Positions 42,037 to 45,166 of a stretch of 64,000 nt of DNA are shown piece by piece; the stretch's first letter is position 1; each line of letters starts with the position of its first letter. The stretch covers positions 3,114-67,113 of the IMG/VR virus record IMGVR_UViG_3300031564_000194; one strand, written 5' to 3'. This DNA is from a virus. Taxonomy: Duplodnaviria > Caudoviricetes. The translations under genes were made by a program, and so were the position numbers. The notes beneath the pieces were generated by a model. That model was not told the origin of the DNA, made no database searches, and saw only the letters and a program-made list of their open reading frames with translations.

Positions 42037-42048
42037 ACCGAATCCAAC

Positions 42049-42111
42049 GGTGGTGTTTGAGTACGGGTTCATCTTTGGGAGATAAATCCCCGTGCTCGTT
42101 CTGTTCCCCGT
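42049..42111 (+). ncRNA. Y-RNA-like repeat 1 (terminal stem only, no tRNA module)
   Basis: CGGTGGTG 5' motif and CTGTTCCCCG 3' motif as in the other repeats; GAGTACGGG/CCCGTGCTC stem; small ATCT/AGAT hairpin. Confidence 0.6.
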
Positions 42112-42119
42112 TAAACGAA

Positions 42120-42183
42120 TTGTTGTAATCCCATCGAAGGGATCATGCCTTGGACGCGGGTTCGACTCCCGCCACCTCCACCA
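42120..42183 (+). ncRNA. ssrA: two-piece tmRNA, acceptor piece (T-arm + acceptor 3' strand + CCA)
   Basis: GGACGCGGGTTCGACTCCCGCCACCTCC-A-CCA; helix-2 strands TGTTGT and TCATGCCTTG pair with the coding piece. Confidence 0.9.
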
Positions 42184-42287
42184 GACAGCAACTCGGCAGG
42201 TCAGTTAAGCGTTGTGCACGACGCTGAACGCTGTCAGAGACTTCACCCGAAGTATCCGCGATACAAAAGCGAGGGTTGCTGCCTCGT

Positions 42288-42540
42288 GGGGGTGTAACGG
42301 TCTCGACAGGGTAGGTGAACGGAGAAGGCAACAGGATAGGCGACTGACCTAATCAGCGCAAAACAAGCAAACGCCAATGACGACGTTTTCGCTGTTCGCG
42401 CCGCTGCCTAATAAGCAGTAGCTGAACCGAGTATCCACCCCCGGCCAGGGCCGTACCTTGGCTGCTTGGGAACAGAAAGGGGTGGAAGTATTCGTTGGTA
42501 AAGCCTTGCCCAGAGCGCAACCCGGAGGCAACCGGGACTT
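42288..42540 (+). ncRNA. ssrA: two-piece tmRNA, coding piece (tag ANDDVFAVRAAA at 42373-42411); 3' end approximate
   Basis: GGGGGTG pairs with CACCTCC giving the G3:U70 Ala identity pair; GGTCTCGACAGGG D-loop analogue; pk1 TAGG/CCTA + CTGA/TCAG; tag ORF ending TAA TAA. Confidence 0.9.
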
Positions 42541-42559
42541 TCAACCAAAGGAGATTTTC

Positions 42560-42709
42560 ATGGCCGCAAACAAGAAGCATCGCAATCTGACTGCAGCGAC
42601 AAGCTGGCAAGCTGGTTACACCGAACCTTCCAAGCCTGCATCCAAGAAGGGTGGCAAGTATCCCGGCCATCAGCAGTTCGATTCCAAGCTGCGCTCCAAG
42701 CGTAAGTAA
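42560..42709 (+). CDS. basic 49-aa protein (MAANKKHRNL...DSKLRSKRK)
   Basis: SD AAGGAG, ATG 42560. Confidence 0.6.
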   Translation: MAANKKHRNLTAATSWQAGYTEPSKPASKKGGKYPGHQQFDSKLRSKRK

Positions 42710-42717
42710 CGAAATTC

Positions 42718-42850
42718 GTGGTGGCGTAGGTAAGGGTTACTTCATCCCAAGCAGCGGGTCGCAGGTTCGAGTCCTGCCATTGGTCTAGGCCGATGTAGCT
42801 CAGTTGGCAGAGCAGCCGCCATCGAACACCCTAACCGACTTGTTCCCCAC
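42718..42850 (+). ncRNA. yrlA: YrlA-like Y RNA, repeat 2 (permuted tRNA module)
   Basis: GTGGTGGCG..GTTACTTC / TTGTTCCCCAC ends; T-arm GCAGG-TTCGAGT-CCTGC precedes a closed acceptor stem and the D-arm GCTC-AGTTGGCA-GAGC. Confidence 0.85.
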
Positions 42851-42862
42851 ATCAACTTTTTC

Positions 42863-42995
42863 GCGGTGGTGATAGATACAGATACTTCTCCATTTCAAGG
42901 AGGTAACGCAGGTTCGAATCCTGCTGGCTCACCAAGTGAGTCATCGTCTAGTGGCCCAGGACACCTAAAAAGCACTGTGTCGATCTGTTCCCCGC
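42863..42995 (+). ncRNA. yrlA: YrlA-like Y RNA, repeat 3 (permuted tRNA-Glu(UUC)-like module)
   Basis: TCTCC-ATTTCAA-GGAGG, TAAC, GCAGG-TTCGAAT-CCTGC, TGGCTCA/TGAGTCA, GTCT-AGTGGCCCA-GGAC; flanked by GCGGTGGTG / CTGTTCCCCGC. Confidence 0.85.
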
Positions 42996-43020
42996 AACAA
43001 CATCAAACCGGAGTCCGTCA

Positions 43021-43236
43021 ATGAAATTGCTTACCATCGAACAACTCAAGAAGCTGCGTATCGAACGTGGTGAAAATCAAGGTGTCTTCTGGGGCCGCGT
43101 GCGTGTTACCCAAAGCGGATCATCCCGCTACGAATCGGGTCGCAAGCCTAATGAGCATGTGTTGATCACTGCCACCCTGGTCTACGGCACAGAAGCCCAA
43201 AAGAAAGCTGTCCTGAAAGAACTCCAGGCAGCGTAA
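43021..43236 (+). CDS. XRE-family helix-turn-helix regulator, 71 aa
   Basis: LKKLRIERGENQGVFWGRVRVTQSGSSRYESGR, resembling the betaproteobacterial NQxxFWxRxGVTQSGGSRYESGR family. Confidence 0.8.
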   Translation: MKLLTIEQLKKLRIERGENQGVFWGRVRVTQSGSSRYESGRKPNEHVLITATLVYGTEAQKKAVLKELQAA

Positions 43237-43243
43237 CGATTTT

Positions 43244-43371
43244 GCGGTGGTGATAGGTACAGATACTTCGCCTTTTAAGCGAGAGGTCGCTGGTTCGAAT
43301 CCAGCCAGAGTGTCGACGCTGTAGCTCAGTTGGATAGAGCACTTACGTGCCTGTACCGATCTGTTCCCCGC
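43244..43371 (+). ncRNA. yrlA: YrlA-like Y RNA, repeat 4 (permuted tRNA-Lys(UUU)-like module)
   Basis: TTCGC-CTTTTAA-GCGAG, AGGTC, GCTGG-TTCGAAT-CCAGC, short closed acceptor, GCTC-AGTTGGATA-GAGC; same flanks; GGTACAG/CTGTACC stem. Confidence 0.85.
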
Positions 43372-43376
43372 ACCTA

Positions 43377-43500
43377 ACGTCGTCACCGATGGACGTAAGC
43401 AATCGGCACCCGATACCAGTCAATCCTGCGAGGACTGCATGCTTCCGTATGAGCAGAAAGACTACAACGGTATCTCCGCACGATGGGTAAGCGGAAAGAT
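43377..43500 (+). ncRNA. unidentified structured RNA (H-type pseudoknot + three-way junction + hairpin)
   Basis: ACGTC/GACGT with CCGAT/ATCGG; GATACC/GGTATC enclosing TCCT/AGGA and TGCT/AGCA; TCCGC/GCGGA. Confidence 0.45.
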
Positions 43501-43503
43501 TTC

Positions 43504-43624
43504 GCAGTGGCGTAGATGACAGTTACTTCGGATAGAGCGTCAGTCGAAAGACTGAAGGTCGTTGGTTCAAACCCAACCGGCTGAAATGCCGTAGCTCAGT
43601 TTTACTGCATCGTCCGTTCCCTGC
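43504..43624 (+). ncRNA. yrlA: YrlA-like Y RNA, repeat 5 (tRNA module opened in the D-loop)
   Basis: GGATAGAGC, TCAGTC-GAAA-GACTGA, AGGTC, GTTGG-TTCAAAC-CCAAC, CGGC/GCCG, TA-GCTCAG; flanks GCAGTGGCG..GTTACTTC / CCGTTCCCTGC. Confidence 0.8.
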
Positions 43625-43634
43625 ACTTAGTTTT

Positions 43635-43695
43635 AAGTGGTGTCAGACATGGTTACTTCCTGCGACGAAACTACACCATGTCAACTTGTTCCCTT
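43635..43695 (+). ncRNA. Y-RNA-like repeat 6 (terminal stem only), abutting the rsr ribosome-binding site
   Basis: AAGTGGTG..GTTACTTC / TTGTTCCCTT; GACATGGT/ACCATGTC stem. Confidence 0.7.
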
Positions 43696-43708
43696 AATGG
43701 AGAAAGCA

Positions 43709-45166
43709 ATGTCCAGTCTCAACCGCAACACCGTAACCCCTGCACCTCGTACTGCTGAAGGCGGCATCGCCGCACGAATCTCGCCACTACAAGAACTGAT
43801 TCGTCTATCCATGGCTTGCATGCTGTGGGAAGACGGCTTCTACATCGACGGCCAAACCGTCGCCAACCGGATCACCACTCTTGTGCACTCCGTTACCTTG
43901 GCGCAAGCCTCTGGCGTAGCCATCGAAGCACGGAACAAAATGAAGCTGCGCCATGTACCGCTGTTGATCTGCCGTGCCATGGCAAGTCATCCAAAGCGCA
44001 CAGGTAAAGATGCGAGCTTCAAAGGTGCTGTTGGTGATGGAAACCACACATCGTGGATTAGCCTCACCCTGGCTGAAGTCATTCAACGGCCCGACGAACT
44101 TACTGAGTTCCTGGCCATCTACTGGAAGGACGGCAAATGCCCTCTGTCGAAACAAGTCAAGCTGGGCCTTGCCAAAGCCTTCAGCAAGTTCAACGAGTAC
44201 CAACTCGCCAAGTACAACCGGGCCAAGGACATCACCCTCAAGGATGTGCTGTTCCTTTGCCATTCCAAGCCCCAGGATGTACCTGCTTCAGCGGAGAAGT
44301 GGGACAAGGTTGCTCGCGCCACCTATGGCGCTACCCTGGATAGTAGCGAAGTCCGGCCCAATGGTTTCACCGAAGGTGAATTGCTCTACGGCAAACTGAT
44401 CTACGACCAGTTGGAGACCCCTGATACCTGGGAAGTAGAACTGAGTCAGTCCAAGGACAAGAAGTCCAGCTGGCTTCGCTTGATCAGCGAAAACAAACTG
44501 GGAGACCTGGCTTTCTTGCGCAACCTGCGCAACATGCTTGAAGCTGGAATCATCCCAGCTGCAATCGCAGAAAGCGGTGATACTCGTAAATGGGGGCGTG
44601 TGCTGCCCTTCCGCTTCATTGCAGCTGCTCGCATGGTGCCCGTGTTGGAACCCATGCTGGAACGCTGGATGCTTAGCTGCTTGGCGAACGCCGAAAAGCT
44701 GCCCGGTATCACACGACTTTACGTCGATGTATCACGCTCCATGCAAGAAAAGCTCAGTTCCAAATCTGACCTCACCCGTCTGGATGCTGCCAAGGCATTG
44801 GCTATCCTGCTGCGCGAAATCTGCCAAGAGGTGTACATCTACACCTTCAACACACAGGCTTCGATCATCCCGGCTCGTTCTGGCTTCGCACTGGCTGATG
44901 CCATCGGCTCGCCTCGTGGTGGCACATCTGTTGGTTCGATGTACAGCAGTACAAACCATAGCGTAGGCCACAGTGAGATCGAACGCGACATCATCATCAC
45001 CGATGAACAAAGTCGTGATCGGATCTGCAACCCTATTGCCAAGCGCGGTTACTTCATCAATGTCGGTTCCAACAAGAACGGTATTGGTTACGGCCCCTGG
45101 CTCCATGTGGACGGCTTCTCTGAATCCGTCGTCGATTACATCCGTCAGTATGAGCAGTCTCTCTGA
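43709..45166 (+). CDS. rsr: Ro60-related TROVE + vWA RNA-binding protein, 485 aa
   Basis: Start ATG 43709 (SD GGAG); TROVE motifs KLRHVPL, TWEVELS, AFLRNLRNM, LPFRFIAA; vWA MIDAS VDVSRSM, GGT, IIITDEQ. Confidence 0.92.
   Translation: MSSLNRNTVTPAPRTAEGGIAARISPLQELIRLSMACMLWEDGFYIDGQTVANRITTLVHSVTLAQASGVAIEARNKMKLRHVPLLICRAMASHPKRTGKDASFKGAVGDGNHTSWISLTLAEVIQRPDELTEFLAIYWKDGKCPLSKQVKLGLAKAFSKFNEYQLAKYNRAKDITLKDVLFLCHSKPQDVPASAEKWDKVARATYGATLDSSEVRPNGFTEGELLYGKLIYDQLETPDTWEVELSQSKDKKSSWLRLISENKLGDLAFLRNLRNMLEAGIIPAAIAESGDTRKWGRVLPFRFIAAARMVPVLEPMLERWMLSCLANAEKLPGITRLYVDVSRSMQEKLSSKSDLTRLDAAKALAILLREICQEVYIYTFNTQASIIPARSGFALADAIGSPRGGTSVGSMYSSTNHSVGHSEIERDIIITDEQSRDRICNPIAKRGYFINVGSNKNGIGYGPWLHVDGFSESVVDYIRQYEQSL

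Follow-up and report, generated by a model that had tools for sequence, protein, structure and literature searches.

Bacterial Rsr (Ro60) proteins and their Y RNAs help cells to survive stress (introductions of PMC4201824 and PMC12135203), and Y RNAs are found within 2 kb of Ro60, on the same strand, in more than 250 bacteria and phages (PMC4201824). Those of M. smegmatis are processed from one precursor (PMC4201824), the Salmonella rsr-yrlBA-rtcBA operon is induced by damaged tRNAs (PMC7790460), and the Ro60 of Thermus phage phiLo binds two upstream Yrl RNAs as well as host PNPase (PMC12135203). Judged by sequence comparison, the phage RNA island described here is an enlarged variant of this known phage Ro60/Y-RNA system. 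We think it likely, with good though not complete confidence, that it is a phage-borne Ro60 (Rsr) operon with Y RNAs, in which a tmRNA, an ORFan and an HTH gene are separate island genes and do not form a dedicated conserved machine. The window (the whole 64-kb stretch of phage DNA that we analysed) carries six co-oriented Y-RNA-like units at 42047-43696 (+), upstream of a Ro60 gene; the same stretch also holds the other three genes, and 12 nt separate its end from the Ro60 (TROVE plus vWA) gene. The features are as follows.

42047..42111, + strand: Y unit U1, short hairpin-type (YrlB-like), with the 'type A' apical loop GUUCAUCUUUGGGAGAUAAAUCC; handle match
42121..42502, + strand: circularly permuted (two-piece) tmRNA gene, beta type; RF04321, RF01850, ARAGORN
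42560..42709, + strand: 49-codon basic ORF (ORFan) with a good SD, AAAGGAGA; ORF and SD read from the sequence, putatively coding
42718..42850, + strand: Y unit U2, classical YrlA layout; handle match
42863..42995, + strand: Y unit U3, permuted cloverleaf, complete and of tRNA-Glu origin; handle match
43021..43236, + strand: 71-aa RsaL-like HTH gene, occupying the U3-U4 gap; PF22495
43244..43371, + strand: Y unit U4, complete permuted cloverleaf; handle match
43372..43503, + strand: spacer of 132 nt between U4 and U5
43504..43624, + strand: Y unit U5, tRNA-like module; handle match
43634..43696, + strand: Y unit U6, short hairpin-type; handle match
43709..45166, + strand: Ro60/Rsr orthologue, 485 aa, TROVE and vWA with a DVSRS MIDAS motif

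An earlier note on this DNA had read the gene at the end of the array as a TROVE/vWA gene behind a ribosome-binding site, and this is upheld: the protein matches PF05731 (TROVE; E 2e-17), its actual start is the ATG at 43709 with GGAG at 43699, and a vWA domain with the DxSxS motif is seen on alignment to the Ro60 of Xylella phage Usme, which itself matches PF25045 (vWA_Ro60) and is 41% identical to the window protein over its full length. The top match among solved structures is phiLo Ro60 (9KOP/9L5Y, E 1.6e-11), and we collected 42 viral loci whose Ro60 is 38-63% identical to that of the window. The island lies in the early/replication module with primase and DNA polymerase genes on either side in the same orientation; no sigma-70 promoter or terminator consensus occurs within it, and the six Y RNA genes are probably co-transcribed with Ro60.

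The six repeats with shared terminal motifs that the earlier note had pointed out are real and non-random. A handle pattern derived from these repeats (NNNN-TGG-YG ... TTCC-N'N'N'N', where N' marks the complementarity of the outer 4 nt) matches six times in 1.65 kb, always on the + strand, versus five scattered matches in the remaining ~126 kb (both strands). The covarying handle common to all six units starts with 4 bp, after which come a bulged U and GG/CC, an internal loop with GYG(A/U)(A/U)AG on its 5' side and UGUU on its 3' side, and an inner stem of 8-10 bp followed by UUACUUC; it agrees with the known Ro60-binding site in position and in its GNCGAA-type motif. Each short unit folds in this way, from the outer stem through the bulged U, GG/CC and the internal loop to the inner stem, and RNAalifold predicts 15 pairs across 33 short units, with compensatory changes in 13. 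For the long units we tested a six-helix structure of our own on an alignment (A3) of 19 sequences: 94.7% of cells are paired versus 37-50% in slid controls, double changes occur in 27 of 34 pairs, and the covariation score is 0.80 versus 0.10-0.19. An Rfam scan, which the earlier note had proposed, recovered tmRNA above the gathering score and left YrlA below it (best units 38-42 bits, gathering score 69), and membership of the units among the Y RNAs is based on our own handle analysis.

Two units (U1 and U6) are short hairpins like YrlB, and the other four, like YrlA, contain a tRNA-like module, in agreement with the tRNA mimicry that had been proposed for them. U1 (fold z -4.4) and U6 each score 61.5 bits with covariance model R1 (E 3e-13 for U1), of which both are training sequences. 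Units 81-86% identical to U1 lie upstream of Ro60 in loci L003, L005 and L016-18, and U6, whose outer stem is UAAG/CUUA and which ends 3 nt ahead of the Ro60 SD, has TAAG/TTAG short counterparts 15-19 nt ahead of the Ro60 start in L001, L003, L005 and L027. In U2 the handle runs on into the anticodon-stem position, and a T arm, a closed acceptor hairpin and a D arm are present without an anticodon loop; it reaches 38.1 bits with Rfam YrlA (E 5e-6), and L004, L005 and L040 have units 70-77% identical to it. In U3 the handle is inserted between the D and anticodon arms. The anticodon stem of this unit is 5 bp long and bears the loop AUUUCAA (anticodon UUC); a T arm is present, the closed acceptor stem has 7 bp, and the D arm is of the Glu type and matches a genuine phage tRNA-Glu(UUC). 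The six-helix structure is supported for U3 in A3. U4 (42.1 bits with YrlA, E 4e-7) has the anticodon arm UUCGC-CUUUUAA-GCGAG and, compared along the whole unit, shares 77% identity with the final unit in phage Usme and the relatives of that phage. Intact anticodon arms (5-bp stem, 7-nt loop) are thus seen in two window units, Glu-UUC in U3 and Lys-UUU in U4. The U5 handle is grafted into the D loop and its anticodon stem is capped with GAAA, as read from the arm order in the sequence (fold z -2.1). A further structured RNA had been suggested at 43376-43500, and this did not hold up: the segment folds no better than shuffled sequence (z -0.04; 88 of 200 shuffles fold equally well), and for the spacer at 43372-43503 neither Rfam (E<=10) nor the covariance models give a match, relatives have nothing similar, and no promoter or terminator consensus is seen.

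Comparison across phages, also proposed earlier, showed that 33 of 39 other phage loci have the handle immediately ahead of Ro60 and that none of 42 has a tmRNA within 5 kb of it. Handle density in independent phage loci is 1.06 per kb upstream of Ro60 (89 in 83.6 kb) and 0.064 per kb elsewhere (48 in 753 kb), a 17-fold enrichment. With the strict pattern, the 40 non-redundant loci (the window and 39 relatives) have six units in three (the window, L005 and L014), four in four, three in seven, two in eleven, one in nine and none in six. The longest arrays have six units in metagenomic phages; there are 7-8 in the cultured Caulobacter phage CcrColossus (seven strict-pattern units and one variant) and 4-5 in virulent Xylella/Xanthomonas phages (4-5 in Usme). 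Such units have been left without annotation or mistaken for tRNAs, and their scores are under the Rfam YrlA threshold. On these counts Y RNA arrays are a lineage habit. The earlier note was correct that rtcB is missing (PF01139 is absent from the entire 67-kb record, and there is no RtcA or RtcR here), but it took this as unusual, and RtcB is missing from 41 of 43 related phage records; among the records sampled, Ro60 without rtcB is the rule. Ro60 also lies within tRNA arrays in L006, L012/L042, L019, L023 and RHph_Y65.

About 2% of phages carry a tmRNA. Two-piece forms are known among phages (53 of 402 phage tmRNAs, including that of Methylophage Melnitz; PMC9004378), and the permuted tmRNA recognised earlier in the window is confirmed by RF04321 (130.3 bits at 42121-42411, gathering score 47), RF01850 (94.1 bits, gathering score 84) and ARAGORN (42091-42502, with the tag ANDDVFAVRAAA before two stops). 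The gene is complete: an acceptor piece (42121-42183) with CCA at its end, an intervening segment of 104 nt (42184-42287), and a coding piece that starts at 42288 (GGGGGUG) and holds the tag ORF (42373-42408) followed by UAA UAA; the G3:U70 pair and the encoded CCA are direct sequence readings. Among the sampled sequences it is closest to a permuted tmRNA from an Accumulibacter MAG, where the intervening segment is about 4 nt, and the tag peptide was not found in the three collections scanned, 185,579 species genomes among them. The gene lies 1.2 kb upstream of Ro60.

The HTH gene, with GGAG 6 nt ahead of its ATG, is present as had been said; it matches the RsaL-like HTH PF22495 (5.3e-15), and its match to HTH_31/XRE is weak. 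It has one homologue (55% identity) in 5.8e9 proteins, and none in viral contigs or related Ro60 loci. The ORF proposed to encode a basic peptide does exist, and its coding status is putative; it has no Pfam hit, is its own sole match among 5.8 billion proteins and has no homologue in the relatives. On this distribution the tmRNA, the HTH gene and the peptide are not conserved parts of the Ro60/Y-RNA system.

We infer that a precursor would be cut into individual RNAs, each of which would load one Ro60 ring, and that the variable heads (pyrimidine-rich loops, or tRNA bodies that have or lack an anticodon arm) may tether the RNP to host proteins that handle RNA, or expose it to them; candidate partners are PNPase, for which there is precedent, and the tRNA- and anticodon-binding factors that the heads suggest. 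The beta-type two-piece tmRNA, the 49-codon ORFan and the small HTH gene would have landed in array spacers, and the tmRNA most likely acts independently with host SmpB, adding to ribosome rescue. The parts would then adjoin one another because phages pool RNA genes in islands, and not as one dedicated conserved machine.

The earlier note had instead proposed a single phage-assembled translation-protection module, in which tRNA-mimic Ro60 RNPs are decoys for PrrC, RloC or PARIS-type defences and the tmRNA clears the remaining stalled ribosomes. A decoy role against host tRNA-cleaving defences is by itself plausible: the intact arms of U3 and U4 would suit a decoy or a tether for anticodon-recognising factors, a canonical anticodon arm (U33, purine at 37) is found in 19 of 36 distinct tRNA-like units of the window and related phages (0-4 in shifted-register controls), the anticodon differs between near-identical units (GUU in L011 and GUG in L015; GUU in Usme and UGU in 10KY502B), and the bacterial operon responds to damaged tRNAs. 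The tmRNA does lie within the array, and tmRNA and Ro60 co-occur in several unrelated phage lineages (CcrColossus, RsoM2USA, Gurke and G041; in Brevundimonas phage Gurke a two-piece tmRNA lies among tRNAs 2 kb from Ro60), a recurrence that may point to a functional link. Against the integrated module, however, a tmRNA lies within 5 kb of Ro60 in 0 of 42 related loci and 1 of 43 related records contains a permuted tmRNA at any position, no other phage shares the peptide or the HTH gene, the anticodons represent at least 8 amino acids, and tetraloops close the acceptor stems, so that the mimics cannot replace tRNAs in translation. We regard the single module as unlikely.

Less probable again is lysogenic conversion, in which Ro60, Y RNAs and tmRNA would be expressed in the lysogen and make the host better at RNA quality control and at surviving stress, as bacterial Rsr does in stationary phase or following UV. 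In its favour, the record has a provirus classification, there is a tyrosine integrase gene (54239-55225), and Rsr and Y RNAs do aid bacterial stress survival; but the island sits in the early/replication module and not next to the integrase as a moron would, and handle arrays also occur in the Usme group, described as virulent (PMC8143317), and in lytic jumbo phages (CcrColossus). That the repeats are decaying tRNA genes and the tmRNA host ssrA DNA from imprecise excision, neither of them functional, is very improbable: prophages often integrate at ssrA (PMC11915505) and several such units are listed as tRNAs in ARAGORN output or GenBank annotation, but the strong compensatory covariation of the handle and all arms across phages with 38-63% identical Ro60 contradicts decay of the repeats, the units keep a fixed position upstream of Ro60 with tetraloop-capped acceptor stems, and the tmRNA is complete, 12 kb from the integrase and has a tag absent from those species genomes.

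The favoured reading, a Ro60 operon with Y RNAs and separate neighbours, compares with known systems as follows. Phage two-piece tmRNAs (PMC9004378; beta-type RF01850) are likewise complete circularly permuted ssrA genes in early-gene regions and dependent on host SmpB, whereas that of the window sits inside a Y RNA array. The Salmonella operon (PMC7790460) also joins Ro60 and Y RNAs in one transcription unit with a functional link to damaged tRNAs, but includes rtcBA. In phiLo (PMC12135203; 9KOP, 9L5Y) a phage Ro60 has Y-like RNAs directly upstream, as here; it forms complexes with host PNPase, and a counter-defence role was proposed for it. The proteins are 24% identical, and the phiLo locus has two Yrls, for which a tRNA-like or anticodon module is not reported, and lacks a tmRNA. 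Bacterial and phage Ro60 with YrlA/YrlB (Chen et al. 2014, PMC4201824; RF02553) resemble the window in RNAs <2 kb upstream on the Ro60 strand, in 5' and 3' ends that pair into a bulged stem with a GNCGAA-like motif, and in two classes (T arm, D arm and closed acceptor hairpin; long hairpin with a pyrimidine-rich loop). They differ in that two units are described versus six here, all under the Rfam gathering threshold (best 42 versus 69 bits), in that no rtcBA is linked here, and in that published YrlA (structure: bioRxiv 10.1101/312249) lacks the anticodon loop that U3 and U4 retain. CcrColossus (NC_019406), the Usme group (LR743523) and Xanthomonas phage 10KY502B (OQ622092) share the handle motif and unit types, in arrays of 7-8 and 4-5 units that end just ahead of a Ro60 41-43% identical to that of the window and include anticodon arms: those of CcrColossus are Gln-CUG and Asn-GUU, and the Xanthomonas phages have Glu-CUC, Asn-GUU and Thr-UGU. 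Unlike that of the window, these arrays are compact, at 0.6-1.2 kb, and contain no inserted genes. The Usme group has no permuted tmRNA; CcrColossus has a two-piece tmRNA 23 kb away, and with Gurke it provides precedent for features that the earlier note had not recognised.

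The best-supported reading of the island is a phage Ro60/Y-RNA operon that belongs to a known kind and whose Y RNA array has been expanded and diversified, with the tmRNA, the HTH gene and an ORFan best explained as insertions between units of that array. Six Y-RNA-like units (U1 to U6) lie upstream of the Ro60 gene and have in common a bulged end-stem, here called the handle; U1 and U6 are short hairpins, and U2 to U5 are tRNA-like.

Features of the island (window positions)
42047-42111, plus strand: U1, short unit
42121-42411, plus strand: two-piece (permuted) tmRNA (extent of the RF04321 match)
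42560-42709, plus strand: 49-codon basic ORF with a strong SD
42718-42850, plus strand: U2, published YrlA layout, handle continuing from the anticodon-stem position
42863-42995, plus strand: U3, full anticodon arm (5-bp stem, 7-nt loop AUUUCAA), anticodon UUC (Glu)
43021-43236, plus strand: HTH gene, RsaL-like HTH family (E 5e-15)
43244-43371, plus strand: U4, full anticodon arm (5-bp stem, 7-nt loop CUUUUAA), anticodon UUU (Lys)
43504-43624, plus strand: U5, handle within the D loop, anticodon stem capped by GAAA
43634-43696, plus strand: U6, short unit
43709, plus strand: ATG start of the Ro60 gene, with GGAG at 43699 (the start is not the GTG at 43637)

Repeat finding and reading gave the units a common 5' end, NNNN-U-GG-YG..., and a common 3' end, ...UGUU-CC-N'N'N'N'. 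A scan for this handle that required pairing of the outer four bases (the strict pattern) returned exactly six plus-strand matches at 42047-43696, all of them 12 to 1,662 nt upstream of the Ro60 start codon, against five matches scattered over the other ~126 kb of both strands; the six repeats with common terminal motifs described in the earlier note are thereby borne out. Since the pattern had been derived from these six units, it was tested on independent DNA, namely 42 viral loci whose Ro60 is 38-63% identical to that of the window, plus two GenBank phages. There the handle occurs 89 times in 83.6 kb on the Ro60 strand just upstream of the gene (1.06 per kb) and 48 times in the rest, 753 kb (0.064 per kb), a 17-fold enrichment upstream of Ro60.

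Every short unit has the same fold: an outer stem of 4 bp is followed by a bulged U and GG/CC, and beyond an internal loop comes an inner stem of 8-10 bp, whose apical loop starts with GUUACUUC or GUUCAUC; for 33 short units RNAalifold predicts 15 pairs, 13 with compensatory double changes. The covariance model R1, built from short units, gives scores of 61.5 bits for U1 and U6 (both training sequences) and at most 13.8 bits for the rest of the window; it cannot span the long cargo of U2-U5, for which the pattern scan and an alignment of long units (A3) were used. The 5' motif of the handle, GGYG(A/U)(A/U)AG, reads GGCGUAG or GGUGAUAG in the window and GGCGAAG in several relatives; judged by sequence, it corresponds to GNCGAA(N)G, the Rsr-binding site proposed by Chen et al. 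(PMC4201824), and is a putative Ro-binding motif. Many units are also preceded by a short U-run (AUUC, UUUUUC, AUUUU, GUUUU), at 42713-42717, 42856-42862, 43239-43243, 43497-43503 and 43629-43633 in the window and at the same position in relatives, and UUU is present in the five bases preceding the handle in 31 of 86 units. These runs may be processing signals for an RNase E-type cut.

The TROVE/vWA gene recognised in the earlier note stands. Its TROVE domain scores 63.9 bits with PF05731 (cut-off 23, E 2e-17), and its best solved-structure relative is the Ro60 of Thermus phage phiLo (9KOP/9L5Y, E 1.6e-11, residues 13-438). The Pfam search called no vWA domain on the protein itself; it aligns end to end, at 41% identity, with the protein of the Usme group of phages, which matches PF25045 (vWA_Ro60), and the MIDAS motif DxSxS is represented by DVSRS in the window protein, aligned to DVSGS of the Usme protein. 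The gene is a genuine Ro60/Rsr gene, of TROVE plus vWA, and its product is similar in sequence to a Ro60 whose ring structure has been solved. In 400 sampled bacterial genomes from the class to which a Luteimonas genome belongs, no relative of it was found at E<=1e-10.

The record is 67,113 bp long (the window is bases 3114-67113), is classed in IMG/VR as a provirus and is estimated complete. Terminase, portal and tail sheath genes occupy the minus strand of the window, and primase, PD-(D/E)XK nuclease, SNF2 helicase, DNA polymerase and tyrosine integrase genes the plus strand; the terminase is at most 36-40% identical to that of any cultured phage. The island lies in the early/replication module in the same orientation as the module, and the integrase gene (54239-55225), 12 kb away from the tmRNA, sits midway along the plus-strand gene block. 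Scans for sigma-70 promoters and terminators found none inside the island, which is compatible with a single processed transcript and proves nothing. RtcB, noted earlier as missing from the window, is missing from the whole 67-kb record, as is SmpB (PF01668).

Each of U2-U5 combines a T arm and a D arm with a closed acceptor hairpin. In the Rfam scan for YrlA (RF02553) that the earlier note had called for, U4 (42.1 bits) and U2 (38.1 bits) are indeed matched, but both fall below the gathering score of 69, as do the long units of relatives (25-51 bits). The RF02553 model has neither the extra anticodon arm nor the handle of this clade, and the handle motif together with our alignments of Y units (A2, A3) could serve as the basis for a better phage covariance model. 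The tRNA body is joined to the Ro60 handle in several topologies, the junction differing among the four long units: U2 and U5 are as listed, and in U3 and U4 the D arm and the anticodon arm flank the handle, which is joined through an A-rich linker. U3 matches a bona fide phage tRNA-Glu(UUC) in its D arm. A fourth graft topology is seen in a relative (L028:2064-2193), whose Y unit has the natural tRNA order (D, anticodon-like and T arms) with the handle in place of the acceptor stem, and resembles Deinococcus Yrn1.

Alignment of 19 long units from 16 phages supports a six-helix structure, with 94.7% of cells paired (37-50% when partners are slid by 1-3 columns), compensatory changes in 27 of 34 pairs and a covariation score of 0.80 against 0.10-0.19 in the controls; the T, acceptor and D helices have 96-99% of cells paired, with compensatory changes. 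We called an anticodon arm canonical when its stem, in exact tRNA register, had 4 bp or more and its 7-nt loop had U33 and a purine at 37. Such an arm is retained by about half (19 of 36) of the distinct long units that have a T loop, against 0-4 in shifted registers, and the anticodons are UGU (five units), UCU, GUU and CUC (two each), UUC, UUU, GAU, AUU, AUG, GUG, UGA and GCU. The anticodon varies between close homologues (GUU in L011 and GUG in L015, two related viral loci; GUU in Usme and UGU in Xanthomonas phage 10KY502B). In the long units the acceptor stem ends in a closing loop, in most cases GNRA or UUCG, which makes these units tRNA mimics that cannot be used as tRNAs. Published YrlA "lacks the anticodon loop" (bioRxiv 10.1101/312249), and anticodon-bearing phage Y RNAs appear to be undescribed in the Y RNA literature examined.

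Y units are systematically miscalled as tRNAs in Ro60-carrying phage genomes. Anticodon-arm units are called tRNA genes at L044:2506-2573 (10KY502B, OQ622092) and L170:10765-10832 (CcrColossus, NC_019406), ARAGORN makes such calls at L008, L013, L022 and L031, and the labels given include tRNA-Thr, tRNA-Gln, 'tRNA-Pyl' and tRNA-His(atg).

The permuted tmRNA of the earlier note is the sole match of Rfam to the whole window at gathering thresholds (RF04321, 130.3 bits, threshold 47; the betaproteobacterial model RF01850 gives 94.1 bits, threshold 84), and ARAGORN also calls it, with the tag ANDDVFAVRAAA followed by UAA UAA. The acceptor piece ends CACCUCC-A-CCA at 42183 and the coding piece begins GGGGGUG at 42288; the two pair as a 7-bp acceptor stem with G3:U70 (alanine identity), and the 3' CCA is present. 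The tmRNA looks functional and would need host SmpB, as do other phage tmRNAs. The 3' strand of U1 (42099-42108) is perfectly complementary over 10 nt to 42468-42477; a processing stem was considered here and rejected as chance, since 1.7 kb should contain about one match of this kind and two more just as long were present. In searches for the origin of the tmRNA, the back-translated tag pattern had no match in the genome, viral or metagenome contig collections, and the T-arm/acceptor pattern matched more than 120 genomes of many phyla and was not discriminating. The sampled tmRNAs closest to that of the window are permuted ones of Accumulibacter type, a weak pointer that hints at a betaproteobacterial host.

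The HTH gene noted earlier is likewise real, and its protein has a single relative (55% identity) in a large protein collection. The basic peptide fared less well: its ORF and SD are present, but among 5.8 billion proteins the product matched only itself, and the ORF may not be a gene. Identical copies of the peptide and HTH genes are found on 10-12 other contigs. "Putative HTH domain DNA-binding protein" genes lie directly upstream of the non-coding stretch preceding Ro60 in CcrColossus (L170:9483-10211) and in Brevundimonas phage Gurke (L172:2173-2988), and an HTH regulator beside the Ro60 locus may be a recurring theme; homology of the 71-aa window protein to the 242-aa HTH protein whose gene precedes the CcrColossus array was rejected (E 0.82). 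The other structured RNA proposed for 43376-43500 was not upheld, as this spacer folds no better than shuffles (z -0.04), has no Rfam match at E<=10 and no similarity in relatives; the idea that it is a degenerate Y unit was unsupported and also rejected.

Non-Y elements are present in the arrays of relatives. L005:4294-4430 is a 137-nt element between two Y units, closed by an 11-bp helix (CAUCAGAGCGG/CCGCUCUGAUG), with a fold z of -4.0 and no Rfam match at E<=1. Spacers of ~200 nt follow the first short Y unit at L001:4573-4776 and L004:4504-4735, the position of the tmRNA in the window; they agree exactly in a 19-nt hairpin, GACCGGUACGGUGUACCGG, end alike in CCCAGUACGUCGUGG, contain neither an ORF nor an Rfam match, and may be another RNA cargo of these arrays.

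The earlier note had joined Ro60, Y RNAs and tmRNA in one integrated translation-protection system. This is possible, and the anticodon arms make a role as decoy or tether for anticodon-reading factors attractive, but its proposed parts are not kept together in relatives: a tmRNA lies within 5 kb of Ro60 in 0 of 42 related loci, a permuted tmRNA occurs anywhere in 1 of 43 related records (~30 kb from its Ro60), and homologues of the HTH protein and peptide are found in no related Ro60 locus. We think it rather improbable that phage Y RNAs of this clade are a modular family in which a conserved handle is set on whole tRNA bodies with rapidly exchangeable canonical anticodon stem-loops (the identities seen being Glu, Lys, Asn, Thr, Arg, His, Ile, Ser and Gln), whose RNPs titrate, sense or recruit anticodon-recognising host factors (e.g. 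anticodon nucleases or anticodon-loop modification enzymes), the tmRNA of this phage having been recruited into the same transcription unit against stalling after tRNA attack.

If the island is an expanded and diversified Ro60/Y-RNA operon, as we prefer, precedent suggests that a precursor would be processed into separate RNAs, that each handle would bind one Ro60 ring and that the variable heads would tether the RNP to host proteins, for which PNPase is the precedent (PMC4201824, PMC12135203). The partner of the tRNA-like domain of bacterial Y RNAs has been an open question since 2014; the Y RNA arrays, graft topologies and variable anticodon arms together make anticodon-reading proteins candidate partners. 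The generalisable outcome is the handle family with its anticodon-bearing, multi-topology tRNA heads.

Two-piece tmRNAs of phages are documented (PMC9004378), and one is present in three of five cultured Ro60 phages of other lineages: 23 kb from Ro60 in CcrColossus, far from it in Ralstonia RsoM2USA, and in Gurke among tRNAs on the Ro60 strand, only 2 kb downstream of the gene. Ro60 often lies within tRNA arrays (L006, L012/L042, L019, L023 and Rhizobium phage RHph_Y65). A bacterial-type RNase P RNA (RF00010, 126.8 bits, gathering score 100) is found at L012:2093-2368, also in the record of L042 (a 109-kb phage), inside a 26-tRNA island that also holds the Ro60 gene; a permuted tmRNA (92.8 bits) is also encoded in this record, ~30 kb from that island. 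The absence of rtcB is the norm among related phage Ro60 records (41 of 43). The strict pattern has no match in Gurke, RsoM2USA, RHph_Y65 or crAss001, where other handle variants are used.

Phage Ro60 genes are usually accompanied by arrays of 2-8 Y RNAs, missed or called tRNAs by annotation. By the strict pattern, among 40 non-redundant loci (the window and 39 relatives), six units occur in three (the window, L005 and L014), four in four, three in seven, two in eleven, one in nine and none in six. In the closest relatives, as in the window, the array opens with a U1-type short unit and closes with a U6-type unit, the latter having UAAG or UUAG as its outer stem and standing 15-19 nt ahead of the Ro60 start. 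The Usme group (virulent Xylella/Xanthomonas phages, 43 kb) has 4-5 units in the 620 nt before Ro60, one of them 77% identical to U4 of the window; the paper describing these phages mentions neither tRNA, TROVE nor Ro60. Caulobacter phage CcrColossus has seven strict-pattern units and one variant in the 1.2 kb before its TROVE gene, one Y unit being annotated as tRNA-Gln. An array of six units is thus at the top of the sampled range and not unique. CcrColossus with its host Caulobacter, and the Usme group with Xanthomonas, provide cultured systems in which the idea of anticodon-reading partners can be tested.
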